64,000 nucleotides of DNA, taken from the IMG/VR virus record IMGVR_UViG_3300032007_000057, positions 1 to 64,000 of that record, one strand, 5' to 3'. Of this stretch, positions 1 to 60,193 are shown piece by piece (the stretch's first letter is position 1; every line of letters begins with the position of its first letter). Source of the stretch: a virus. Its lineage: Duplodnaviria > Heunggongvirae > Uroviricota > Caudoviricetes. The translations under genes were made by a program, and so were the position numbers. Below the pieces are notes generated by a model. That model saw only the letters and a list, made by a program, of their open reading frames with translations, had not been told where the DNA came from and ran no database searches.

Positions 1-514
1 TTTTTTTAATAAACTCTCCATTCTCATCTTTCTTACGACTAATATCATACGGACAAGTTTTATCTAAACAAGCTGAACAGGATTTCATATGTTTAAGACC
101 ACTAATAAGATATTGTCTAATATTATGACTAAAATCTAGTAATCCTTCAAAGCTTTTATCATCATATTCAAATCTAGCAGCTTTTCTATATCTTTCATCA
201 ACTTTCTTGAGATCTTTATTTAAACTTTCGAGTTCAGCTTCAATTTTTTGTTTATACTCTTTATGTGATTTTTTAGCTTGCCAGAGTCTCCAAGTTAAAA
301 TCTTAATCTTCTTTTCTTCAGGAGTATCTTCTGGAGTAGGTATAAGATTCTCTTTCTCATACCAGTTAAACTTATTATCTTTAAGTCTGTCCAATTCTTC
401 TCTAAGCATCTTATTCTCATTAATTAAAGATAAACCCCATCCTAATACTGTTTTAATTACATTAATGGGCTCTTCTTTTTTTAACTCCTCAAGATTCAAT
501 TCTTTAACTGGCAT
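1..514 (-). CDS. Hypothetical coiled-coil protein, 3' portion runs off the window start (>=171 aa). C-terminal CSACLDKTCPY Cys cluster.
   Basis: Uninterrupted minus-strand frame from ATG at 514 to the window edge, checked codon by codon. Co-oriented with neighbouring genes. The plus-strand ORF 207..575 is its antisense shadow. Confidence 0.5.
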   Translation of the reverse strand, partial: MPVKELNLEELKKEEPINVIKTVLGWGLSLINENKMLREELDRLKDNKFNWYEKENLIPTPEDTPEEKKIKILTWRLWQAKKSHKEYKQKIEAELESLNKDLKKVDERYRKAARFEYDDKSFEGLLDFSHNIRQYLISGLKHMKSCSACLDKTCPYDISRKKDENGEFIKK

Positions 515-995
515 CTCGTGCTTCCTCCCTGAAATTAATCTTAATAATAAACCCATACTTACTCAATTCATCTAACTTAAAAATAGCTAAAAGCCTATAT
601 GCGGGATAATCGATCAAATGCTCTGTTGCATATAAATCTAATGAAGAATCTTCATTATGATATCCTAAAAATATGATAAGTAAATTATCAACATCACAGG
701 CCGCAATCATATTATCTAAATACTTTTCCGTAGTATTACTATTGGTATCAAGTTTAGTTAAATCACTATATCTATAAAATGGAGCATCATCCGTTTCATA
801 AAGATCATAAATATCGCCACTTAAATACTTATCCCAATGATACTCATTAGCATTTAAGCTTTTATAAATATTAGGATTAAACTCTAAAGTAGTTTTACCA
901 ATTTCTTTTAAGAATCTAATTAGATCATCTTTATTCATTTCCAAACCTCTTAACACACTGATTTGGATAAATTCTCCAACAGTAGAAAGTTTCAT
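504..995 (-). CDS. Hypothetical protein (163 aa)
   Basis: Intact ORF, co-oriented in a tightly packed minus-strand block. Confidence 0.5.
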   Translation of the reverse strand: MKLSTVGEFIQISVLRGLEMNKDDLIRFLKEIGKTTLEFNPNIYKSLNANEYHWDKYLSGDIYDLYETDDAPFYRYSDLTKLDTNSNTTEKYLDNMIAACDVDNLLIIFLGYHNEDSSLDLYATEHLIDYPAYRLLAIFKLDELSKYGFIIKINFREEARDAS

Positions 996-8517: not shown

Positions 8518-9201
8518 TTAATTATTGTCTTCAGAAGGAGCTTCTTCAGTTCCATTGTCTTCATCAATTTCAATATCAGCAGCTTCAAGATCATTCCAAT
8601 CCTGAGCATCAAGATACTGAGAAATATCACTGTCGGGGTCAGTTGGATCATAACCCATATTCACCGCATAAACAATTTCATTATTGATAGTCATCTTCTC
8701 TGTAGCTACTGAGAAACCTTCATTAAGTCTGCTAAGAATTCCAGTTCTAAAATCATTCATCATCATACTAATGTCTGAGAAGATTTCTCCAATAAATCTA
8801 GCCCTAACTCTATAATACTTAGCAAGAAGTTTTGCTTTAGCTACTTCTTTACCAAACTCTTCATTCCAAGTATCATTAGTTTCTGGATTACACTTTGCTA
8901 CTGCAAAAAACTTATCTGGAAACTCTTCAAGGAGTTTCTTATCGATAAGGTCAGCAACAAAATTACAATCACCATTCCTATGAACTGCTGTGCAATTATA
9001 AACAAAATTAACAAAATCACGATTGCAATTTGTCATAAATGCACACACTACACCTTTGTCCTTATTAATACGATACTCAATCATAGTTTCTGCTCCTTCT
9101 TTGTCTGTTATTTTTGCCCTTATTAGGGTCTGCTCGTTTTGACGTATTCTTGTGATAACCCTTATCCTTTTTCTTTTTGGTGTAATCCCAAGAATCCTCA
9201 T
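8518..9201 (-). CDS. Hypothetical protein with acidic C-terminal tail (227 aa)
   Basis: ORF. Confidence 0.5.
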   Translation of the reverse strand: MRILGITPKRKRIRVITRIRQNEQTLIRAKITDKEGAETMIEYRINKDKGVVCAFMTNCNRDFVNFVYNCTAVHRNGDCNFVADLIDKKLLEEFPDKFFAVAKCNPETNDTWNEEFGKEVAKAKLLAKYYRVRARFIGEIFSDISMMMNDFRTGILSRLNEGFSVATEKMTINNEIVYAVNMGYDPTDPDSDISQYLDAQDWNDLEAADIEIDEDNGTEEAPSEDNN

Positions 9202-9274
9202 CCAGCTTAAACTTCTTAAGTTCTTTTCCCATACCTAATTGAATCTACTTCGCTCCTTTTTATAAGATTATTTA

Positions 9275-10270
9275 CTACCAACCTATATCATTAGGATCAT
9301 CAACTTTAATCCCAAAGATATCACAAAAATTAGAAATACGATCATCAACTGCAAATTCTTGCATTTTATTATAATTAATTCTAAACTTAGTTAAATCTAA
9401 TGTACCATTAGTAGGAATAGTAATACAATCTAACTTACCTTCTTTACCCATTGTACCAGATCGAACTAAATCTGTCAAGCGTCTTTGTGTATCTGAATCA
9501 AATTGACCTATATCAATTTCTTCCAAGTCAAATCTATAGCCTCTATCCATTACTCTAAAGGTACTTCCATAAATTGCATTATATACCAACATAGATTTAA
9601 CTGATCTTGGCAGTCTATCTTGGGCATAGTTTTCTTTATTCCAAGAACTTGGAATAGCACAATAAACTGTACCTGTTTTTAACTGCTCAACATATCTACC
9701 TCTATAATCATCAATCTTAGTGGTAAGCTCTTCTTTACTGATTCCTTTCTTAAGGATATGCTCAATAAAATCATTTAACATATCTCTGCTAAATTGAGGA
9801 TAATCAGATCTTACAACTTCTATACCACTAATACTGATTTTATCCAAAGGCTTTCCTTCTTTGGAAACTAACCAAATAGCATACTTCTTTTTGATTTCCA
9901 GAAACAAAGCTCTTCTAATAACAAGTTCCTGTTTAAAATTAAAGTTAAACTTTTTAGCCGAAGATTCTGTAGGAGATGTATTATGCATATTAAGAAGTTC
10001 ATGAATCATTACATTATTAATATACTGTGCTACAGATTCATTCAATTCAATAACTTTATCTATCTTTTCCTTGTCAGAAATTTCATCATAATCTTTTCCA
10101 TAAATTGCTTTCAATGCATCGCCATATTTAGTAAAAATTGAATCTGTATTATGAACTAATATGTCATTTGCAAAAAAACAATGATCATCATCTGGCATTT
10201 CAATATCATATACATCAATAGGTTCTTCTGGAGTAATCACTTCTATTGATTTAACACTCTCTATCTTCAT
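9275..10270 (-). CDS. DNA polymerase B C-terminal fragment, preceded by a split-intein C-half (IntC, about 41 aa)
   Basis: Starts MKIESVKS...VYDIEMPDDDHCFFANDILVHN|TDSIF. That is intein blocks F/G ending in HN, then the +1 Thr, which is the TDS half of pol motif C (YGD|TDS). A KKKYA (KKRY) motif lies further downstream. Confidence 0.8.
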   Translation of the reverse strand: MKIESVKSIEVITPEEPIDVYDIEMPDDDHCFFANDILVHNTDSIFTKYGDALKAIYGKDYDEISDKEKIDKVIELNESVAQYINNVMIHELLNMHNTSPTESSAKKFNFNFKQELVIRRALFLEIKKKYAIWLVSKEGKPLDKISISGIEVVRSDYPQFSRDMLNDFIEHILKKGISKEELTTKIDDYRGRYVEQLKTGTVYCAIPSSWNKENYAQDRLPRSVKSMLVYNAIYGSTFRVMDRGYRFDLEEIDIGQFDSDTQRRLTDLVRSGTMGKEGKLDCITIPTNGTLDLTKFRINYNKMQEFAVDDRISNFCDIFGIKVDDPNDIGW

Positions 10271-10293
10271 TTTCCTTCACCACCCATATAATG

Positions 10294-10322
10294 ATTCTAT
10301 CAGACTCGGCATACTTTGTCAA
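10294..10322 (-). promoter_or_regulatory. Sigma70-like promoter (TTGACA-17-TAGAAT) for the polymerase C-fragment gene
   Basis: Minus-strand TTGACA, 17 nt, TAGAAT, then SD GGTGAAGGAAAATG. The -35 element abuts the degenerate terminal CRISPR repeat. Confidence 0.55.
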
Positions 10323-10324
10323 TA

Positions 10325-10950
10325 ATTACACAATATTCTTATTTGTAGGTCCTGTATAGTATGGGCAATACAATACTAATCAGGTATCAATTATACGATA
10401 TTCTTATTTGTAAGTCCACATGGTAAAACAATTCCACTACTCCAAAAGCTCATAGTTATACGATACCCTTATTTATAAGTAACGTATAGTGAGTATACCA
10501 GAACTGAAAGAGCACGTCAAGTTATACGATACTCTTTATTTGTAAGTGTCGTATAGTGCTAAAATACTCATGTTTAAAATGTCTGTTATACGATACCCTT
10601 ATTTGTAAGTACCGTATAGTAACATCATTAAATTTCATTTTTACATCACTGTTATACGATACCCTTATTTGTAAGTACCGTATAGTATGTGATGGACCAT
10701 GCAGGAAGAAGATAGCGTTATACGATACCCTTATTTGTAAGTACCGTATAGTGATGATGAGGTAATAGCAGTAATAGTTAGAGTTATACGATACCCTTAT
10801 TTGTAAGTACCGTATAGTCACCCAAATCAGCATACTCTTTAATATCATGTTATACGATACCCTTATTTGTAAGTACCGTATAGTTCTTTTTTATCGTCTG
10901 TTGTATCTTCTTTTGTTATACGATACCCTTATTTGTAAGTACCGTATAGT
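10325..10950 (-). CRISPR. CRISPR array. 36-nt repeat GTTATACGATACCCTTATTTGTAAGTACCGTATAGT (plus-strand reading), 10 units, 27-30-nt spacers. Six perfect units (starts 10585, 10651, 10717, 10783, 10849, 10915). Four progressively degenerate units at the distal end (starts about 10325, 10390, 10455, 10521).
   Basis: Read directly. Units are regularly spaced at 66 nt. All nine spacers between them are unique. Repeat ends are palindromic (TATACG...CGTATA). Degeneration increases away from the cas gene, so the leader is on the cas12 side. Confidence 0.9.
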
Positions 10951-11161
10951 ATCCTATACGCAAACTCTTACAAATACTGAGTTTATTCAATATTCAGTTG
11001 TAAAAAACAGCATTTTCCATACGTAAAAACAAATAAAAAGTATCGTATCCGAATAAATCCGGAGGCAGTTAATTTTCATTAACTTTATTTAAATTCACAT
11101 CGCTGATTCTGATGATCTTATTTAAATGGGTTTGCCAAACTTACCCAAATACATCCCCTGT
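10951..11161 (-). promoter_or_regulatory. CRISPR leader / candidate tracrRNA region
   Basis: AT-rich 210-nt region between the array and the cas12 stop. Contains repeat-like segments in inverted orientation at about 11024-11050 and 10968-10977. See findings. Confidence 0.4.
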
Positions 11162-12646
11162 TTATTTAGGGAATTTAGAATACTTTAGACCTTCAATTAC
11201 GTCTTTAACTCTCATCCTAACTGGATGAAATGGATGGTATCCAACCCAACTAAAATCTGGAATTGCTTTTCTCATAATACCCATAGCGCCATTTACATCA
11301 GCATTCACCAACTTTCCAACCCCAGAAGAAAACAATCCTCTGTGAATTCTTTTACCAAAGTTAGCCTCATCTCTAGTTTCAGGGTCTTCTTTAGTAGCCA
11401 AGGGAGCATTTCTAAGATGATCTGTTTTACTAGTATAAGACTCTTCAACAATCTCGAAGCTTATGCCCCTCATTTTACACTTATATTCGAGTTTGTCAAG
11501 TAGTTTTTTAAAAGGAAAGTTAACAATAATTTGATTATTTTTATGCCCAGTATTGATCTTCTGCTTCATATCTTTATTCCAACCGCAAATAACTCTACAA
11601 ATATTATAATGGAGGCAATATCTAACAATATACTTAGTATATGCATCAACGATATAATTTATACGATTAATATGATTCTTTGTCATTGCTTCAATTCTCT
11701 TAGTAGTATACTGCTTAGGTCTTTTCTTCCCATTTTCATCAGTAATAACTTCAATCTTATGTTTAAGTTTATCTACCATTAAATGATAAAATCTAATTTT
11801 AGATTTCAAAGCATTACCATCAAGGATAACTGGATTAAGTTTATCATCACTAGTAATTATAGTACAAAAATTTCTAATACCCAAATCAATACTAAGATAT
11901 CGTTTATTATCAAGTTTAGGAACCGATTCATTATACGTATAAATTATTTCAATCTTAAAATATCCTTTTTTAGGAATTATCCTAACTTGGTCAATTCTTT
12001 TTCCTTTTACATACTCCGAATTATGTGGCAATTTTTGAAGTGGGATATAAATGCTTTTATTATATCCATCCGTTCCCCTCGGCTTAGGAAACACAAGACT
12101 TCTAGTTTTTGAGTTAATTTTAATAGAAGTACCAGAAAAGTATAATGGGCACAGATCTCCTTTTTTATAAAAACCGGGCTTTCTTGGCATTCCTTTATAT
12201 TTTTCCGGGTGCCTACTCCAATCCCCAAGGGATCTTCCATATGATTTTAAATTTTTAGATAGTAATGTTCTAATTACCTCTGTAGTTGCATCTCTACCTA
12301 CAAGATTTTTAAGTAGTTCCCAATTACTTTTACCCTCAAGATTTTTAGTATAATACTCACCGTTCTCATCTTGTTCACTGGCATATCTCCTCAAACTCAT
12401 TACTTTAAAAAAATCATCGACAGGTTTTTCAAAACCAACGTATTCGTCTGGAAACCAAGGAAAAGACTTACCAGTTTCTTTTTTATATTGTTCTCTAACC
12501 GGGTCATAAGCTTCTTTAAACTCATAAGCATAGTACAGTGTCTGATTATACAAATTCTTAGCAACAGTACATGCTTCTACAAGCCAATCATATACTTCTT
12601 CATTTCCAGGTCTTCTATAAAAGTTAAAACTAGCAGTAAGTTGCAT
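11162..12646 (-). CDS. cas12: Miniature type V CRISPR effector (Cas12f/TnpB-like RuvC nuclease), 494 aa
   Basis: TnpB-type N-terminus (..LYNQTLYYAYE). RuvC-I LSIDLGIRNF, RuvC-II IVEESYTSKTD, RuvC-III NADVNGAMGI. No CxxC...CxxC zinc finger between RuvC-II and RuvC-III. SD GAGGGGG before the ATG. Directly flanked by the CRISPR array. Confidence 0.85.
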   Translation of the reverse strand: MQLTASFNFYRRPGNEEVYDWLVEACTVAKNLYNQTLYYAYEFKEAYDPVREQYKKETGKSFPWFPDEYVGFEKPVDDFFKVMSLRRYASEQDENGEYYTKNLEGKSNWELLKNLVGRDATTEVIRTLLSKNLKSYGRSLGDWSRHPEKYKGMPRKPGFYKKGDLCPLYFSGTSIKINSKTRSLVFPKPRGTDGYNKSIYIPLQKLPHNSEYVKGKRIDQVRIIPKKGYFKIEIIYTYNESVPKLDNKRYLSIDLGIRNFCTIITSDDKLNPVILDGNALKSKIRFYHLMVDKLKHKIEVITDENGKKRPKQYTTKRIEAMTKNHINRINYIVDAYTKYIVRYCLHYNICRVICGWNKDMKQKINTGHKNNQIIVNFPFKKLLDKLEYKCKMRGISFEIVEESYTSKTDHLRNAPLATKEDPETRDEANFGKRIHRGLFSSGVGKLVNADVNGAMGIMRKAIPDFSWVGYHPFHPVRMRVKDVIEGLKYSKFPK

Positions 12647-12708
12647 TGCCTTGGTTTCCCCCTCAATTGTCTTTTGTTATAACATAACTATACTATATAA
12701 AACATTTA

Positions 12709-13818
12709 TCAAGAGGCTTTATTAAAAACCTTATATCCATTACGAGCTGTCTTATCTTCACATAAGATAATAAATTTAGGATAGCTATTACTATTAAAAT
12801 AAGTTGCTCTCTTACAGTGCTTACACGATAAGCACTGAATCATCACTGGTGCCTTTTTCCTTATATGGTAGTCCTGAAATTGTGGGCAAAAATTAACGTT
12901 TGATGTAACAATCGACCTTGGAAATTCGTTTCTAAAAAATGTCCACTGTCTTGTTAGATCTAATCCATTAAAATTTTTATTTTCTAATATATTCTTAAAC
13001 TTCTTTTGTTCCATATATTCTATAATGTCAGTCTCTTTTAAAGCATCTAATCCCTCATCAGTTAGATTGTCATAAAACCTATCTACATACCATTTAACTC
13101 CGTTTGTAACTCGAAAAGCGTATTCATAAGATCTATCACAAACTAGGTCGCTCTCACCACTTCTATGAATCCAATTGCATGGAATACTGCCGCTTAAGTA
13201 TGCCTGTTTTAATTCGTCATATGTAGATTCTCTATTTACTTTAGATAAGTCATACTCTACAACATAAAAATTATTAGTATCTATAGATTTAATTAAATCT
13301 AGTTTTACATCATCTACTCCATGGGTTACTGTTACTTCAAGATACACGCTACATGGAGAGCTATTAAATCCAAACATTTCCTCATAACTAACATCATAGC
13401 ATGTCAAATCGGGTCTAATATATTTCCCATTAGCACAATTTAAATTTTTTTCAAGATAACCCTTATTAAATTTATAAAAATTTGATTCTTTAATCCTAAT
13501 ATATGATGTGCCCATACTAAGCGTATTAGGATTTATAATATTACCATTCCAATCAATATCTAATTCAGGCATCCTACATAGGCCTGTTTCCATAATAATC
13601 TTTTTCATGCCTAAATGTAAATTAGTCTCTCCATGAACATAAACTGAAGCTGGACATTTACTATTCGGTAAATGTGAAAAATGATGACCAACAATATTAC
13701 CTTTTTTAGCTACTAAAGGCTCCCCGCATATAGGGCAGATATAATTATGCAACCCAGACACTACTTCAGAAATATTCTTAATGCTACCGTCTATCAAACA
13801 ATATTCTAACTGAGCCAC
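12709..13818 (-). CDS. CoiA-like nuclease-family protein (N-terminal Cys/His zinc finger)
   Basis: CPICGEPLVAKKGNIVGHHFSHLPNSKC matches the CoiA-family N-terminal C..C...HHFAH..C signature. 369 aa, co-oriented and 62 nt upstream of cas12. Confidence 0.55.
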   Translation of the reverse strand: MAQLEYCLIDGSIKNISEVVSGLHNYICPICGEPLVAKKGNIVGHHFSHLPNSKCPASVYVHGETNLHLGMKKIIMETGLCRMPELDIDWNGNIINPNTLSMGTSYIRIKESNFYKFNKGYLEKNLNCANGKYIRPDLTCYDVSYEEMFGFNSSPCSVYLEVTVTHGVDDVKLDLIKSIDTNNFYVVEYDLSKVNRESTYDELKQAYLSGSIPCNWIHRSGESDLVCDRSYEYAFRVTNGVKWYVDRFYDNLTDEGLDALKETDIIEYMEQKKFKNILENKNFNGLDLTRQWTFFRNEFPRSIVTSNVNFCPQFQDYHIRKKAPVMIQCLSCKHCKRATYFNSNSYPKFIILCEDKTARNGYKVFNKAS

Positions 13819-13870
13819 AGCATATACCCTCTTTTCATTTATAAACTCTAGTTTATAATATATCTAATTA

Positions 13871-14581
13871 TTAAATTTTCTCCTTAGGGCAATCCTTAGT
13901 CCTATGCTTTTCAGTGCATTTTCCAAACCAGCACTTAGGACCACAACCAATAATCAACAAAGGAAACTGATTCTGGAAGATAATATAGATCCTATCAGCC
14001 AATTCTCTAATACCACTTTGAGCTCTCATACACATTCGCAATTCCATAAAGTGCCTAAGCTCTCTTAGATTCATAGTCATAACCAAAGAAGTCTGAGTAG
14101 CATTAGGAAGAATCTCTCTAGCATCTTCTTTAGGAATTCCATCTTCAATATATGCATTATACAAATCAAATGTATCCTTAAGATGCTGTTCAAACAAAGC
14201 CTGTGCATGAGGATTATTTTTAATTGATTCTGGGATAGTAAACTCTTCAGGTCGCATCGTAGTATATCTTTGACTTCTCTGAGAATAAGAAGCAATCCTA
14301 TGACGAACAAGCTGATGGCTAACACTTCTACTAATACCTTCAATAAAAAAGGTAAAATTAGCATGTTCAAGTGGAGATTCATGACCATTTTCCAGAAGCA
14401 TTTTTACCATCTTGTCTTGATACTCTTTATTTAAACACTTCTCTTTCAATTTGTCAAGAGTCAAATCTGAATAACATGTGGCAGCAGCTAAAGTAATTAC
14501 AAATTCAGGATCCTCAGTATTACTAATCAAAGTTACATTCATAATCGTCATCATCCCTTCTGATATCATATTTAAAGTCAT
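13871..14581 (-). CDS. thyX: Flavin-dependent thymidylate synthase ThyX
   Basis: ThyX signature RHRIASYSQRSQRY (RHR-x7-S...R). Start may be an internal Met, because the ORF overlaps the upstream gene by 59 nt. Confidence 0.85.
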   Translation of the reverse strand: MTLNMISEGMMTIMNVTLISNTEDPEFVITLAAATCYSDLTLDKLKEKCLNKEYQDKMVKMLLENGHESPLEHANFTFFIEGISRSVSHQLVRHRIASYSQRSQRYTTMRPEEFTIPESIKNNPHAQALFEQHLKDTFDLYNAYIEDGIPKEDAREILPNATQTSLVMTMNLRELRHFMELRMCMRAQSGIRELADRIYIIFQNQFPLLIIGCGPKCWFGKCTEKHRTKDCPKEKI

Positions 14582-18103: not shown

Positions 18104-20683
18104 TTATAAGGTGATTAGTTGGTCTGTTACAACTAATTCTGTTGGTTTAATTATAGTTTTAACATTATTTCTCATTACTACCAAACTATGATCTTCAGTT
18201 ACAGTGACTGTTTTTCCAGATTCAGTAGTAATCTTATACAGTTTCTTATTAGTTTTATGCTTCATCAGATACCTTGGGAAATAAAGTCTGTCATCATATC
18301 CAAGTACGCATTTATTAGGATTCTGAATATAATTTTTTCCGAGATAATGCCACACTTTATTATCCGAAGCACACATATCCCAAAGTTCTTTAATAGTTAT
18401 ATTACCTTTACCAGTTCTGATTAAAGAATCTCCAGTAACTGAATCTCCATAAATTACATTTGGTAGAGCTTGTTCTGATTGGTAATCCCAATCAAAAGGA
18501 ATATCTACATGGTCAAATTTATTAGATTTATTTTGAATCATTTGATTAATGCAATTATTAGCAACTACTGCGGCGATTTTAGCAATTTCTCTACCAGTAG
18601 AAGTAATACTTCTGGCAACCTCATAATCATACAATCTGAATCTAATATTGGACTGACCACCATAAAGAGAATTAGTAATGATCTTAACTGTTTTCTGCAT
18701 AGTATCATATCTGTCAACTAGCATTTGGTCTTTACCAATATTATCCTTCATAAGATCTTTATACTCTTTTCTCTTTTTAATGAGCATATCTACAATATCA
18801 TAAAGAACTGACTGCTTATCTTCATGCTTCTTAAAGATAGTGCCAATCTGGGTAATAATATACCCATTCTTAAGCATTCTTTCATGAAAACTTTTAGCAG
18901 ACAATTTATACAATCTCTCAATACCTTGAACTTTCAAATACAAACTTACATCTGTATTGGAATTAACAAATTCTTCTTTATTAAAGATATATTGTCTAGC
19001 AGTATCTGTATCAACTTTTCCTACATAGGTATCTGCACTAATGTTATATCTTGCCATAATGTATGGATAAAGAGAAGTAAGATCCAAATCACCCAACCAA
19101 TCATGTACACCGCTAATTGGTTCTCTAACATAAGCACCCGCAAACTTTTTCTTCTCAATTCCAGCTTTAACAATTTTGGCTACTTTATCTCTATCCATAA
19201 GATACTCATAAAGAATCCCATCACAAATATGTAGAGTAGTATAAATACTATCCCATGAGATATTAGCCAACTGGACTATACTAAAATTAAGGTCAATATA
19301 CTTCAACTTTTCATCCAATTTTCTTACAAGATGAACGTCGTTAATATTGTATGCAATAAACCTTTCAGGTTCTTCCCTAAAGATTTTATCCATGCCATCT
19401 TCAGTATCAAGTTTAGTAATACCCAACTCAATTTTAGAAATAGTTCCAAGCTTATAATTCTCTTTTTTACCAAGAGTTCTTTCCTTATAGCATCTTTGAT
19501 AATCAAGTGCTACAGAATAACCAATATGAGGAATACAATAAGTAACTTCCTCTTCATGTTTATTCATAACTGTTTTATATTCAATTTCAAAAGTTTTATT
19601 ATGAGCCAGTTTAGGATGTTCAATTCCTAAAAATTCTGCTCTATACTTAATATAAGGTAAATCAAATTCATCACTATTCCACCCAGATACTAGATCTGGA
19701 TCAAATTCTTTCAATAAACTGAAGAACTTAAGGAACATATCACTTTCTTTATCAAAGATTTCTACATTGAAAATACACTCATCTTTGTAATCAAGATATT
19801 CCTTAATTTGTTCAGTATTAATTTTAGCTTTGTTTAAATTATAGACCAAAGTATAATATTTGTCAGTATAATTATCATACAAAGTAATCAAGTTAACGGG
19901 AATAACTCTAGCTGACTTCTTAATATCAGCAAAGTCAATAATACCATATCCTTCTTGATACAACTCAATATCAACATAATTTACTCTAAGTTTATAATGA
20001 CCAAGATTATCTTTGTTTTCTTTTTTCCAAAGATAATTCTTATGAATAGCCAAATTAAAATCTACATTATAAATAGCTTTATAAGAAGATTCTGACTGAA
20101 TTTGTTCAATAATGTATTTTCTTTTACCATAATGTACCAGTTCACCTTTTAATCCTGCAATATCATGAACATCTAAATAATCATCTTTACCGGTATACAT
20201 CATAACCATATCATCAGTCTGAGTAATATATCTTTTATCACCAACTCTAATAACATATGCAAATTCCTTATTCACATAGTCTGAATAGAAGTTAAACAGC
20301 ATAGGCTTAGAATACCCATCAGTTGGCTTAGAATCTTCTTTCTCTTTAGAGCTATACAATTTATATTTACTCTTTTTATTAATAACTACATCAGTTTCTT
20401 TCTTTTTAGGTTTTTCTTCAATTTTGGGAAACACGGGTTTAACAGGAATATAATTAAACTTATAAATAGTGTTATACTTCTTATGTACTTTAGCAATATC
20501 TTCAATAGAATACTTATACGCATAAGGATTATTGAAAAGCTGATTCAATACAATAGATGTTTCAAAATCTTCTTCAGCTAAACTTAAAATAGAGGAAATC
20601 TTAAGAGACTTACATTCCTCTGGAAATGGCACATTTCCTTCAGTAGCTAACCATCTTATATATGTAGTTAGTGGTGAAGCCAT
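18104..20683 (-). CDS. DNA polymerase B N-terminal fragment (exonuclease plus pol motifs A and B) fused to a split-intein N-half (IntN, about 112 aa)
   Basis: Exo I VDIEL, motif A DLTSLYPYIM, motif B KIITNSLYGGQSN, then motif C cut at ...VIYGD|SVTGDSLIRTGKGNITIKELWD (intein block A with Ser1). Intein block B VTEDHSLVV follows. The ORF ends at the intein-half boundary. Confidence 0.85.
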   Translation of the reverse strand: MASPLTTYIRWLATEGNVPFPEECKSLKISSILSLAEEDFETSIVLNQLFNNPYAYKYSIEDIAKVHKKYNTIYKFNYIPVKPVFPKIEEKPKKKETDVVINKKSKYKLYSSKEKEDSKPTDGYSKPMLFNFYSDYVNKEFAYVIRVGDKRYITQTDDMVMMYTGKDDYLDVHDIAGLKGELVHYGKRKYIIEQIQSESSYKAIYNVDFNLAIHKNYLWKKENKDNLGHYKLRVNYVDIELYQEGYGIIDFADIKKSARVIPVNLITLYDNYTDKYYTLVYNLNKAKINTEQIKEYLDYKDECIFNVEIFDKESDMFLKFFSLLKEFDPDLVSGWNSDEFDLPYIKYRAEFLGIEHPKLAHNKTFEIEYKTVMNKHEEEVTYCIPHIGYSVALDYQRCYKERTLGKKENYKLGTISKIELGITKLDTEDGMDKIFREEPERFIAYNINDVHLVRKLDEKLKYIDLNFSIVQLANISWDSIYTTLHICDGILYEYLMDRDKVAKIVKAGIEKKKFAGAYVREPISGVHDWLGDLDLTSLYPYIMARYNISADTYVGKVDTDTARQYIFNKEEFVNSNTDVSLYLKVQGIERLYKLSAKSFHERMLKNGYIITQIGTIFKKHEDKQSVLYDIVDMLIKKRKEYKDLMKDNIGKDQMLVDRYDTMQKTVKIITNSLYGGQSNIRFRLYDYEVARSITSTGREIAKIAAVVANNCINQMIQNKSNKFDHVDIPFDWDYQSEQALPNVIYGDSVTGDSLIRTGKGNITIKELWDMCASDNKVWHYLGKNYIQNPNKCVLGYDDRLYFPRYLMKHKTNKKLYKITTESGKTVTVTEDHSLVVMRNNVKTIIKPTELVVTDQLITL

Positions 20684-31992: not shown

Positions 31993-32544
31993 GTACAAAA
32001 CTGACTCACTTATTTATATGATCTACATGACCCTAAGAATAGGTCATTTGTGTAGTACTTTCGATGACTTTAATGGGCGTAATATATGTACTACAATCCT
32101 TTTCCCCTTTCAATCAAAGGATGACAGTTTCTTACCACTTGCAGTAACCTGACAACTCTCCGGAATCCTCCACTCAACACTGCTCTAGCTTCTACTAAAG
32201 GTGGCTCAACATTAAGTTTCATAGGATAACTACTACCTCAAGTGTAGTAGGTTCTAACAGTTTTTATAAAGTCTATCCCTTAGCCAAGGTAATTTTTATT
32301 GAGGGTTACATTCCCTAATAGACTTCTATCCTACTTATGCCAAATGAAGACATTACAATCTTCTAAGTAGATCAGCCTTTATTTACTGTTATTTCCCAAG
32401 CACTGATTTGGGTGAAAGGATTTTAATTGTAACTCATTTTAGGTTACAATTTAATTTTTAATGGCTCCTCCTGGTGGTTACGCTCCACCGTATACGGTTT
32501 AACAGACCGCCACTCTACTATTGAGTTAAGGAGGAATTAGAACT

Positions 32545-32639
32545 GGCTCTGGAGCCCCGATTCGAACGAGGATGAGAAAGGAGGTCCCTTTACTTACTGA
32601 TCCAAAGTCAGCTGTTTTTCCAATTAAACTACTCCAGAG
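32545..32639 (-). ncRNA. Atypical tRNA-like element. 8-bp acceptor stem, long variable arm, anticodon loop CTTTGGA (UUG).
   Basis: Minus strand: CTCTGGAG...GTTT-AATTGGAA-AAAC...GCTGA-CTTTGGA-TCAGT...AAAGG-GACCT-CCTTT...CCTCGTTCGAATCGGGG...CTCCAGAG-CC. Canonical T-loop GTTCGAATC. Non-standard combination of features. Confidence 0.3.
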
Positions 32640-32782
32640 TTAAATTATCAAGGGTTCACTTAAGACTCGCACTTAAGATCTTCAGCTTTCACATTTTCCT
32701 AATTATGCTCTAGAAGCATACATAGAAAACACTACTCAGTGAGATTTTGCTATTTAAACTATGAACCATGTCCAACAAAGAT

Positions 32783-42539: not shown

Positions 42540-43295
42540 ATGTATTTGGAAAAAGCATTTTGTGAATTTGTAAAACCAAAACAGGTAAATTATGTATTGG
42601 ATGAAGTTTCTGATAAGAAAACCCTATTTGAAGCAGATGAAATAACAAAACGACTTCATAATAGTTATTTGAGATCTGAAATAGATAAAAGTACTTGGAC
42701 TAAAAAGAGTATAAGTGCTTATGACCTTACTGGTTGTATAAAGAAGCTATATTTTAGGTTAAGGGGTATTAGTCCATCTGATACTCCTAATTATCCATAT
42801 TCAAATATAATTTTTGGTATAGGCAATTCAGTACATCAAGCATTAGTGGATGCTATACAACCAGAAGAAGTTGAAGTTTCATTTAAGTCATATATTATTG
42901 GTTTTGAATTGAATATGAGATGTGATGCTATTTGCTATGGTAAGATATTGCATGAGTATAAAACTGTGGAAAAGATAGATGATGACACTGAATTAAAACC
43001 AGAGCATTTACAACAAGCAGTTATTTATGCATACTTATTGAATAAAATACATCATAGAAATATACAGTATATTCAGATTATATATGTTTCTAGAGGTAAA
43101 GTTAGCGTTAAAGTATTTAATGTTGAAGTTAATGAAGATATAATGAATAAGGTTGGTAATAGATTGAACAAGCAATTGAGAGAACTTAAAGATTGCTTAG
43201 ATCAATATAGAGTACCTTCTTTTGATAGTGAGTATTGTTCAAAAGATTGTAAGTTTTGTGAGTATGCAACTTTTTGTAGATGTTTAAGTAGTTAA
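42540..43295 (+). CDS. PD-(D/E)xK nuclease, RecB/Cas4-like, with C-terminal four-Cys cluster
   Basis: N-terminal Cys (LTGCIKK). D...EYK nuclease core (CDAICYGKILHEYK). QQAVIYAYLL (QxxxY). C-terminal C-x4-C-x2-C-x5-C (CSKDCKFCEYATFC). Confidence 0.5.
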   Translation: MYLEKAFCEFVKPKQVNYVLDEVSDKKTLFEADEITKRLHNSYLRSEIDKSTWTKKSISAYDLTGCIKKLYFRLRGISPSDTPNYPYSNIIFGIGNSVHQALVDAIQPEEVEVSFKSYIIGFELNMRCDAICYGKILHEYKTVEKIDDDTELKPEHLQQAVIYAYLLNKIHHRNIQYIQIIYVSRGKVSVKVFNVEVNEDIMNKVGNRLNKQLRELKDCLDQYRVPSFDSEYCSKDCKFCEYATFCRCLSS

Positions 43296-59470: not shown

Positions 59471-60193
59471 ATGTTTAATAAAAAATTATTGATGAAGAAC
59501 TTTGATGAGAAAGAAAAACCTCTAGTAGATCTTTCTAATTGGGCTTATAACACTTATACTAAAACATATAGTACCATGACTGAATTAGACCAAACAGGAA
59601 TTGATTATTTAAATTCCGTTAGAGGGACCGGTATGGGTAACATGTTTTATAATTGTAGTTCATTAACTTCATTAGATGTATCTAATTGGGATACTAGTAA
59701 TGTTACTAGTATGGACTATGTGTTTTCTGGGTGTCGTTCATTAACTTTATTAGACGTATCTAATTGGGATACTAGTAATGTTATGTATATGAGCTATATG
59801 TTTGATAATTGTAGTTCATTAACTACATTAGATGTTTCTAATTGGGATACTAGTAACGTAACTGATATGGAGAATATGTTTTATGATTGTAATTCATTAA
59901 CTTCATTAGATGTATCTAATTGGGATACTGGTAAGGTTAATCATATGATGGATATGTTCGAAGAGTGTAGTTCATTAGAATATTTAATTATTGGATCTCC
60001 TACTTTTAAATTTCGGATGATTGATTCTAGTTGTGGAAACCTTAACACTACTTGTAAGATTTTAGTTCCATCAGCATTACTTGATACATTTAAAACTGCC
60101 ACTAACTGGTCTTCAAGAGCCTCACAGTTTGATGCAATAGAAAACTATACAATAACTAGATCAAATGGTCAGGTTACTGTGACACCCAAATAG
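59471..60193 (+). CDS. DUF285-type repeat protein (four or more LDVSNWDTSNVT.M..MF..C.SLT repeats)
   Basis: Four consecutive roughly 26-aa repeats. Matches the Mycoplasma/Firmicutes DUF285 surface-protein repeat. Confidence 0.6.
   Translation: MFNKKLLMKNFDEKEKPLVDLSNWAYNTYTKTYSTMTELDQTGIDYLNSVRGTGMGNMFYNCSSLTSLDVSNWDTSNVTSMDYVFSGCRSLTLLDVSNWDTSNVMYMSYMFDNCSSLTTLDVSNWDTSNVTDMENMFYDCNSLTSLDVSNWDTGKVNHMMDMFEECSSLEYLIIGSPTFKFRMIDSSCGNLNTTCKILVPSALLDTFKTATNWSSRASQFDAIENYTITRSNGQVTVTPK

Follow-up and report, generated by a model that had tools for sequence, protein, structure and literature searches.

A probable minimal type V CRISPR-Cas cassette derived from an IS607-type TnpB in a jumbo phage lineage

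Known TnpB-derived systems and the phage cassette

TnpB nucleases have been captured by CRISPR arrays about 50 times independently, mostly without other cas genes (PMC10691335; PMC12669027). According to PMC13565253, TranC intermediates arose from IS605 or IS607 TnpB by splitting of the omega RNA into a tracrRNA (trans-activating CRISPR RNA) and a crRNA (CRISPR RNA). The same source (after Jin et al. Cell 2025) and bioRxiv 10.64898/2026.03.27.714800 characterize TranC or type V-U loci by a TnpB-sized nuclease, an array of 3-20 repeats of 32-38 nt and the lack of cas1/cas2. Compact examples encoded by phages include CauTranC9 (Caudoviricetes), Cas12p and Cas12r. The present analysis concerns a stretch of 64,000 nt (hereafter the window) from a virus of the Caudoviricetes (positions 1 to 64,000 of the IMG/VR record IMGVR_UViG_3300032007_000057), in which a gene encoding a TnpB-derived Cas12-like RuvC nuclease of 494 aa (11162..12646, minus strand) is followed by a CRISPR array (10325..10950, minus strand). 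This locus is probably both a minimal type V CRISPR-Cas system and an accessory cassette of a jumbo phage, itself probably from the rumen, and its effector a recent offshoot of an IS607-type TnpB that has lost its transposase partner. The cassette belongs to a known class (TnpB-derived V-U/TranC systems, some of them on phages) and represents a new lineage without a named subtype. The statement in the original prediction that the locus could not be matched to a described subtype from the sequence alone is right for the named subtypes; the class itself has been described before.

The array comprises ten repeats with a period of 65-66 nt. Its leader-proximal part (10585..10950, minus strand) consists of six identical 36-nt repeats (R1-R6; ACTATACGGTACTTACAAATAAGGGTATCGTATAAC on the minus strand, which is that of the gene) and five 30-nt spacers. 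Its distal part (10325..10584, minus strand) comprises four degenerate repeats, R7-R10 (35-37 nt; 10325..10557), together with spacer 6 (27 nt) and spacers 7-9. The nine spacers (30, 30, 30, 30, 30, 27, 30, 30 and 29 nt) are all different. Six perfect 36-mers at an exact period of 66 nt (Tandem Repeats Finder score of 373) are no chance result. The ten repeats, six of them perfect, and the unique spacers of 27-30 nt agree with what had been proposed; the effector stop codon is separated from the first repeat, on the same strand, by 211 nt and not by about 190 nt.

This locus has very few relatives in public data. Among 5.8 billion proteins, a word-indexed search retrieved only five related clusters (P0001, P0002, P0003, P0004 and P0005, with 99%, 85%, 80%, 77% and 52% identity, respectively), beyond which identity drops to about 36%, with TnpBs of 404-430 aa. 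An exhaustive phmmer search of 1.84 billion cluster representatives found one cluster at 50% (498 bits) and a fragment, followed by matches at 217 bits. All database neighbours outside this clade are TnpBs. The clade loci are carried by contigs L001-L007, several clade contigs stopping inside the array, and by L051, which was found through its repeat pattern and is binned in the metagenome-assembled genome RUG11211. This phage contig is the only genome in which the repeat pattern was found among 185,579 species representatives, and the pattern was not found in IMG/VR or JGI metagenomes. No clade member was matched by a search of IMG/VR, and megablast of positions 9000..14000 against GenBank phages gave no match.

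Comparison of these loci revealed that the array lies about 200-220 nt after the effector gene, on the same strand, in all five homologue clusters and in L051. A RuvC effector is thus stably linked to an array with variable spacers, as is required of a type V system. The repeats of the clade fall into four diverged types and their spacer sets are unrelated; the most distant type, that of L007, has a repeat of about 29 nt, a period of 61 and ten copies. Over the gene and the intergenic scaffold, the window is 98.7% identical to L001 at the nucleotide level, a similarity that begins only 17 nt upstream of the start codon, yet the two have no spacer in common. L051 and L004 are 99% identical at the nucleotide level, and L051 has one more spacer at the gene-proximal end. 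Because the degenerate repeats are located at the far end (window, L005, L007 and L051), the leader-proximal side was assigned to the side of the gene; likewise, the additional spacer of L051 relative to L004 points to the gene-proximal end as the leader end. The leader itself (10951..11001, minus strand) is located between the predicted tracrRNA and the first repeat, and new spacers would enter at this end. Taken together, the spacer turnover, the gene-proximal spacer difference and the degenerate repeats of the far end argue for a live, polarised CRISPR array. The conserved linkage of gene and array, this turnover, the protospacers of sister arrays and the absence of TnpA (both presented below) support the miniature phage-borne type V unit that had been put forward.

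The locus shares with TranC a nuclease nested among TnpBs, a short array, the absence of cas1/cas2 and a predicted tracrRNA between gene and array. It therefore has the two defining features of TranC, nesting within TnpB diversity and a guide split into tracrRNA and crRNA, the numbered TranC clades being compared here by description alone. LaTranC was not detected by sequence and is a distant fold match to the effector, and we found neither a rearranged RuvC-II site nor a RecE/RecT target described for TranC. Since compact Cas12 effectors on phages and about 50 TnpB captures are already documented, the cassette adds a lineage and not a principle. It is a clean and young case of the transposon-to-CRISPR transition, with about 36% identity to IS607 TnpBs and yet a predicted tracrRNA, array turnover and targets of sister arrays.

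Descent and active site of the effector

Curated sequence models place the effector in the TnpB superfamily: it passes the cutoffs of NCBIfam NF040570 guided_TnpB (112.9 bits, E 2e-32; cutoff 100) and of Pfam PF07282 (Cas12f1-like_TNB; 38.5 bits, cutoff 26.3), and falls under that of PF01385 (27.1 bits, cutoff 30.5). The open reading frame (ORF) and the first two models confirm the proposed TnpB/Cas12f-like protein. The effector is not a Cas12f (V-F) according to the subtype model NF049972 Cas12f2 (37.4 bits for a cutoff of 450). Its AlphaFold2 model (pLDDT 82, pTM 0.69) has the WED-REC-RuvC-TNB fold, with a Foldseek probability of 1.00 to AsCas12f, ISDra2 TnpB and ISFba1 TnpB. Among the solved structures matched by this model, all at 12-16% identity, the best was AsCas12f (E 6e-16, template modelling (TM) scores 0.56/0.65), followed by ISDra2 TnpB (E 2.9e-13, TM 0.45/0.58), ISFba1 TnpB (E 4.6e-12, TM 0.44/0.53), Cas12p (E 2.5e-10, TM 0.38/0.36), LaTranC (E 3.3e-7, TM 0.40/0.41), the best chain of Cas-lambda (E 8.4e-7, TM 0.42/0.30) and CasPhi (Cas12j; E 5.5e-6, TM 0.36/0.27). 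The structural comparison thus matched the folds of AsCas12f and TnpB, those of CasPhi and Cas-lambda being only remote. By sequence alone, phmmer against the PDB found no solved relative (best E 0.034); a family profile of the effector matches ISDra2-type TnpB and AsCas12f. Like Cas12f, the effector is miniature, appears tracrRNA-dependent in design and has its array downstream; unlike it, it lacks the canonical RuvC-II Glu and the zinc finger, and the two share only 14% sequence identity.

The closest sequences to the effector (33-42% identity, 404-430 aa) belong to the IS607 TnpB branch with a rearranged RuvC-II site. They share with it the motifs KNLYNQ, IDLG, GxN, EESYTS and NADVNG, a Gly at the canonical RuvC-II position and the absence of the C4 zinc finger, all four cysteines of which are gone from the effector. 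The next-best representative, P0361, is 42% identical. The nearest TnpBs (P0006, P0033 and several IMG/VR loci) directly follow a serine recombinase and are therefore of the IS607 type. Consistent with this, tblastn with two IS607 recombinases gave matches in L008-L013, L021, L043, L048 and L050; it found neither TnpA nor a remnant of it in the window, L001-L007 or L051. A 30-sequence alignment revealed insertions of the clade relative to TnpB relatives at about residues 40-50, 64-100, 300-312 and 421-427, and a C-terminus unlike that of these relatives. The effector is about 70 aa longer than these TnpBs, most of the gain falling in its N-terminal (WED/REC) portion. The transition from transposon to CRISPR can therefore, as these comparisons suggest, start from a TnpB branch that has a rearranged RuvC-II site and no zinc finger.

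An ordinary copy of an IS607 or IS605 TnpB with its omega RNA could give a similar picture, the repeats then being an unrelated tandem repeat or a solitary mini-array that uses host Cas proteins. The protein does score as guided_TnpB, its neighbours beyond the clade are all TnpBs, and phage mini-arrays using host Cas proteins are known (PMC11656645). Such a transposon would have a single guide and mobile copies. Unlike IS607 TnpB, the window locus has no serine-recombinase TnpA, is syntenic in the phage lineage and has a tracrRNA and a multi-spacer array in place of the single guide; the array has ten repeats, and no second copy of the cassette was found in the window with the scaffold covariance model. 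The order gene-tracrRNA-array is kept at 52-99% identity while repeats and anti-repeat diverge together, the repeat pattern is confined to the clade phage contig among the species representatives, and spacers of sister arrays match foreign DNA. An array directly after the gene was found in none of 39 IMG/VR TnpB loci. This explanation is already contradicted by the data and very improbable. The refutation foreseen in the original prediction, namely detectable transposon ends or a TnpA remnant, fails, because the IS607 relatives carry their serine-recombinase TnpA and the window locus carries none.

The active site of the effector is rearranged. The RuvC-I residue is D254 (IDLG), which aligns with D225 of AsCas12f, replaced by Ala in the dead-mutant chain 7wju, and the RuvC-III residue is D450 (NADVNG). 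The canonical position of the RuvC-II Glu is occupied by G355 (..RVICG355WN in the effector and ..TIQME324DL in AsCas12f), a pairing obtained from a gapless reading of the strands where HMMER set a 6-residue gap. The EESYTS motif (E401/E402) aligns with the ..DPQYTSQ segment located ahead of the zinc finger in canonical proteins. Of the three RuvC motifs initially described as apparently intact, the first and the third were thus correctly recognized, and EESYTSKTD is not the canonical RuvC-II. D254, G355, N357, E401, E402 and D450 are invariant in the 30-sequence alignment. In the largest RuvC-II-rearranged branch of TnpB, described by Altae-Tran et al. (2023, PMC10691335), Gly takes the place of Glu, the site is predicted to be completed by another Glu, located on beta-5 as in RuvX, and the proteins are predicted to be still active. 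EESYTS would carry the relocated glutamate of this branch. Nuclease activity through the rearranged site is plausible, because the catalytic residues are conserved in relatives that still adjoin a transposase.

Alternatively, the effector might bind DNA under RNA guidance without cutting it, as do Cas12c, Cas12m and TldR, and silence its target genes. G355 at the position of the canonical Glu and the missing zinc finger are in line with this proposal, and binding-only type V systems exist (PMC12669027). It is nevertheless improbable, since D254, E401/E402 and D450 are invariant in the clade and also in IS607 relatives adjoining TnpA, since the Glu-to-Gly branch is predicted to be active through its beta-5 Glu, and since E401/E402 come straight after the strand 396-400 in the AlphaFold2 model. 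A 494-aa nuclease with a possibly A-rich protospacer-adjacent motif (PAM) would be of interest for genome editing only if active.

Predicted tracrRNA

The intergenic region carries a predicted tracrRNA scaffold of about 170-185 nt (10989..11175, minus strand), which starts in the last codons of the gene and contains four conserved hairpins and then an anti-repeat. The latter is bipartite (11016..11049, minus strand; inverted repeat I1) and pairs with positions 2-34 of the 36-nt repeat. In alignments of all lineages, it is followed by a conserved T-run, TTTTT(T)ACAA (11002..11007, minus strand), the probable 3′ end or terminator of the tracrRNA. RNAalifold of four loci predicted 38 pairs in the scaffold, 13 of them with compensatory changes. 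The scaffold covariance model matches only the clade's own loci, downstream of the genes (E 1e-37 to 1e-43), and detects neither the scaffold of L007 nor any TnpB omega-RNA region. The counterpart region of L007 has the same layout and folds beyond shuffles (z = -6.4). In the window, the dG of the tracr:repeat duplex is -28.2 kcal/mol, that of the opposite-strand control -13.9 and that of the repeat hairpin -12.8. In a cross-matrix of the four lineages, cognate partners form the most stable tracr:repeat duplex of each row and each column (z -4.9 to -6.7 versus shuffled repeats).

Because this conserved structured RNA has an anti-repeat that co-varies with the repeat, we read the system as tracrRNA-dependent in design, like Cas12f, Cas12p and TranC and unlike CasPhi. 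The scaffold RNA can be assigned to the gene's strand with moderate confidence. No credible Rfam family was found in 10000..13000, and scans for sigma-70 promoters and terminators gave no excess of sites over shuffled sequence, the T-run at 11002..11007 not being called. The folded regions downstream of the two nearest TnpBs have no recognisable layout in common with the tracrRNA, whose descent from an omega RNA would be by analogy with the systems described in the literature.

A genuine type V CRISPR system without tracrRNA should also be considered. The repeat hairpin would then serve as handle of the crRNA, like that of Cas12a, Cas12j and Cas-lambda, and the intergenic RNA would be a leader, a regulatory element or an omega RNA relic. 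In three lineages, compensatory changes do preserve a hairpin within the repeat (TATACGGTAC/GTATCGTATA in the window; L004 and L005 have shifted variants of it), and the phage-encoded Cas12j and Cas-lambda need no tracrRNA. However, the hairpin has only about half the stability of the tracr:repeat duplex (-13 versus -28 kcal/mol), and the repeat hairpin of L007 is weak (-6.5) where its cognate anti-repeat is strong (-30.2). In four lineages, repeat and anti-repeat have changed in concert, 13 compensated scaffold pairs would not persist in a mere relic, and a large scaffold RNA is the rule among the effectors of TnpB size that have been characterised to date. This possibility is unlikely, although we consider it the least improbable of the three alternatives.

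The tracrRNA-dependent design also separates the cassette from other phage-borne systems. CasPhi/Cas12j and Cas-lambda are proteins of 700-800 aa that use no tracrRNA and process their crRNA themselves. The window locus resembles them as a phage-borne single-effector type V system without adaptation genes, which is the valid part of the proposed CasPhi/Cas12j-like arrangement; it differs by its 494-aa effector, by its predicted tracrRNA, with which the proposed likeness ends, and by fold matches too remote for membership of either subtype. Cas12p ("hacker") is phage-encoded and described as an early intermediate between TnpB and Cas12, with a repeat of about 37 nt, a long tracrRNA, a GTN PAM, a size of 500-700 aa, a large REC domain that binds thioredoxin and a zinc finger (bioRxiv 10.1101/2025.01.20.633832). 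The window effector is likewise phage-encoded, with a similar repeat length, a long predicted tracrRNA and a tentative PAM that, like GTN, is not T-rich, but it has no zinc finger and no sequence match to the solved Cas12p chain.

Read along the minus strand, the cassette would produce the effector mRNA, then a tracrRNA of about 170 nt just past the stop codon, then a pre-crRNA from the array. Each 36-nt repeat would pair over nearly its full length with the bipartite anti-repeat, and the long duplex would probably be cut by a host RNase III-type enzyme, because other tracrRNA systems work in this way (PMC12669027), yielding crRNAs made of a repeat handle and a spacer. The complex of effector, tracrRNA and crRNA would then find double-stranded DNA beside a 5′ PAM, tentatively NAA/GAA, and cleave it by the RuvC site, with the second acidic residue provided by E401/E402. 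Its role would be interference against other genetic elements in the infected cell. Since the machinery of spacer acquisition lies outside the cassette, it would have to be supplied in trans, either by another part of the phage genome or by the host.

Spacer targets and genomic setting

Matches to foreign or mobile DNA were found for three spacers of sister arrays and for none of the nine spacers of the window, so the proposed search of spacer targets succeeded only outside the window. The matched spacers are B1/E2, a single spacer present in both L004 and L051, and D1 and D9, the first and last spacers of the L007 array. A wobble-degenerate pattern derived from B1/E2 matched three JGI or NCBI metagenome contigs. 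The B1/E2 protospacer is identical at 29/30 positions in L056 and L057, L056 being part of a 230-kb contig. The D1 protospacer, located 1.3 kb from the B1/E2 site in the same element, matches at 32/33 positions in L054 and 30/33 in L056, and the D9 protospacer, also in this element, at 30/33. The D1 and D9 matches arose without selecting for them. The D1 and D9 protospacers are contiguous on one strand with an overlap of 3 nt (L054 93..155; L056 1361..1423), which could stem from a single hotspot sampled more than once or from acquisition by a ruler-like process; the GAA located 5′ of the D9 protospacer falls within the D1 protospacer. Other searches were negative: a concatenate of 30 spacers gave only a chance-level 28-nt match against GenBank phages (E 0.4), and exact 24-mers of spacers W4 (window), A4 and D2 and a wobble pattern for W7 (window) had no match in IMG/VR. 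A shared target gene of W7 and B1, considered because of the common 'TCTTTCAGTTC', was dropped, as W7 has 11-14 mismatches at that site.

The targeted genes encode a phrog_2554 protein and a DUF3799/exonuclease VIII, the latter gene adjoining a RecT-like gene. They belong to an island of about 6 kb (L057 9157..15227; also L058 8538..14249 and L059) that encodes a 255-aa protein, phrog_2554, LPD28, DUF3799/exonuclease VIII, RecT, a 534-aa protein and a 165-aa protein. No integrase is visible among these listed island genes. The island is found at two different sites of Pyramidobacter-like chromosomes, among EF-P, NusB, XseA and other housekeeping genes, and may be a satellite-like or cryptic-prophage island. 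The XseA flanking it has 68-72% identity to Pyramidobacter proteins, and Pyramidobacter-like Synergistota are probably the phage host or close to it. The cassette thereby connects an uncultured jumbo-phage lineage, probably of the rumen, with one particular chromosomal island and with Synergistota as the probable host. On the spacer-identical strand, the 5′ flanks of the three protospacers end in CTGAA, in GCGGAA (GCGCAA in L056) and in CCCAA (CCCAG in L054 and L055), which suggests a 5′ PAM of the NAA/GAA type.

Two phage lineages with fully diverged repeats both aim at the same 1.4 kb of this island, and the convergence of two diverged arrays suggests strong selection. By analogy, it resembles the conflict between ICP1 and PLE (PMC11656645). 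According to that source (after Seed et al. 2013), the type I-F CRISPR-Cas system of the Vibrio phage ICP1 has spacers aimed at the PLE chromosomal island, is present only in some strains and occupies a variable locus that contains other nucleases in the remaining strains. The cassette clade likewise combines a phage CRISPR, sister-array spacers on a chromosomal island and an accessory, variable nuclease locus. Unlike the window cassette, the ICP1 system belongs to class 1 and has its own adaptation module, and the host link is here an indirect one. It is conceivable, though we regard it as rather doubtful, that the cassette is an ICP1-like counter-defence by which a jumbo phage of Synergistota destroys a phage-interfering RecE/RecT satellite island by means of a RuvX-like site. 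If so, it would be the first type V (and TnpB-like) phage CRISPR directed at an island of the host, and it would exemplify a CRISPR effector that is active with a rearranged RuvC-II site.

Several points weigh against a minimal type V system of the design proposed here: (i) the canonical RuvC D-E-D triad is not intact, Glu being lost (G355) and D254 and D450 kept, (ii) the repeat has its own hairpin of 10-12 bp (-12.8 kcal/mol), which makes a tracr-independent crRNA possible, (iii) the alifold energies of the scaffold (-19.7 sense versus -15.0 antisense) are weakly discriminating, (iv) the nine spacers of the window have no second copy in the window at up to 6 mismatches and no match in 50,697 GenBank phages and the target loci, (v) the best protospacer matches hold 1-3 mismatches, (vi) the suggested PAM comes from three sites in two other lineages, too few to fix it, and (vii) no adaptation genes were found in the 64-kb window of a genome that is probably larger than 200 kb. 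Concerning the last point, no Cas1 or Cas2 was present among the 25 listed of the 33 PADLOC families matched by 85 window ORFs, the unlisted families having E > 4e-6. The statement that cas1, cas2 and cas4 are not nearby is correct locally; 30 kb from the array, in the replication/recombination module, a gene (42540..43295, plus strand) encodes a Cas4-family PD-(D/E)XK nuclease of 251 aa with a C-terminal CxxCxxCx5CxC cluster (Pfam Cas_Cas4 25.1 bits, cutoff 22.7; PADLOC Cas4 E 2e-10). It may be a plain recombination nuclease or take part in spacer acquisition.

The cassette is located within a split polymerase gene. The N-terminal half of a family B DNA polymerase (18104..20683, minus strand) ends in an intein-N domain (residues 760-857), and the C-terminal half (9275..10270, minus strand) starts with intein-C (residues 4-41), which ends in ..FFANDILVHN directly before the TDS of the YGDTDS motif. 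The two halves, which a split intein joins, are separated by 7.8 kb with about a dozen genes, among them thyX, a CoiA-like nuclease gene, small ORFs and the CRISPR cassette. In all clade loci that reach past the array (window, L005, L007 and L051), the cassette is found just upstream of the polB C-half. Two IMG/VR relatives, L052 and L053, have the same split polB (81% and 69% identity of the C-half, respectively) and no cassette; L053 is on a 275,466-bp viral contig. Between the window polymerase and its counterparts in cultured jumbo phages, identity amounts to only 26-31%. Because L052 and L053 lack the cassette and because the genes upstream of it differ among clade members, the cassette appears to be an accessory element of a jumbo-phage lineage, located in a variable slot rich in nuclease genes.

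The slot upstream of the cassette is occupied in the window by a gene for a 369-aa protein with a CoiA_N domain (12709..13818, minus strand), and in L001-L003 and L006 by a gene for an HNH_3 protein and two small ORFs (L001 6306..7723). It looks like a hotspot for selfish or accessory nucleases. In L006 (2870..4645), ThyX has a LAGLIDADG-type insertion, with a length of 591 aa instead of 236 aa.

The window has a G+C content of 31% and also encodes a DnaB-like helicase, SSB, ThyX, a helicase, an SbcD-like nuclease, a UvsX-like recombinase, a clamp loader, FEN and NrdD. Other PADLOC matches include an orphan DNA methyltransferase (E 2e-54), a homing endonuclease, PbeA-like and AbiO-like proteins and a small protein "sometimes fused to CARF", and the ORF 504..995 (minus strand) weakly matches a type I specificity subunit. 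Eight tRNA genes were detected, including a tRNA-Gln (32544..32638) and an amber-suppressor tRNA with the anticodon CTA (32652..32745, minus strand), labelled 'Pyl' by ARAGORN. TAG may therefore be recoded in part of the phage genome; such recoding would account for the regions poor in long ORFs (31.5-35 kb and 61.8-63.2 kb). Lastly, the ORF 59471..60193 contains a coding tandem repeat (59642..59977, plus strand) of 78 nt (26 aa) in 4.3 copies, with the consensus ..MFYDCSSLTSLDVSNWDTSNVT.., and its product looks like a BspA-type leucine-rich repeat protein.

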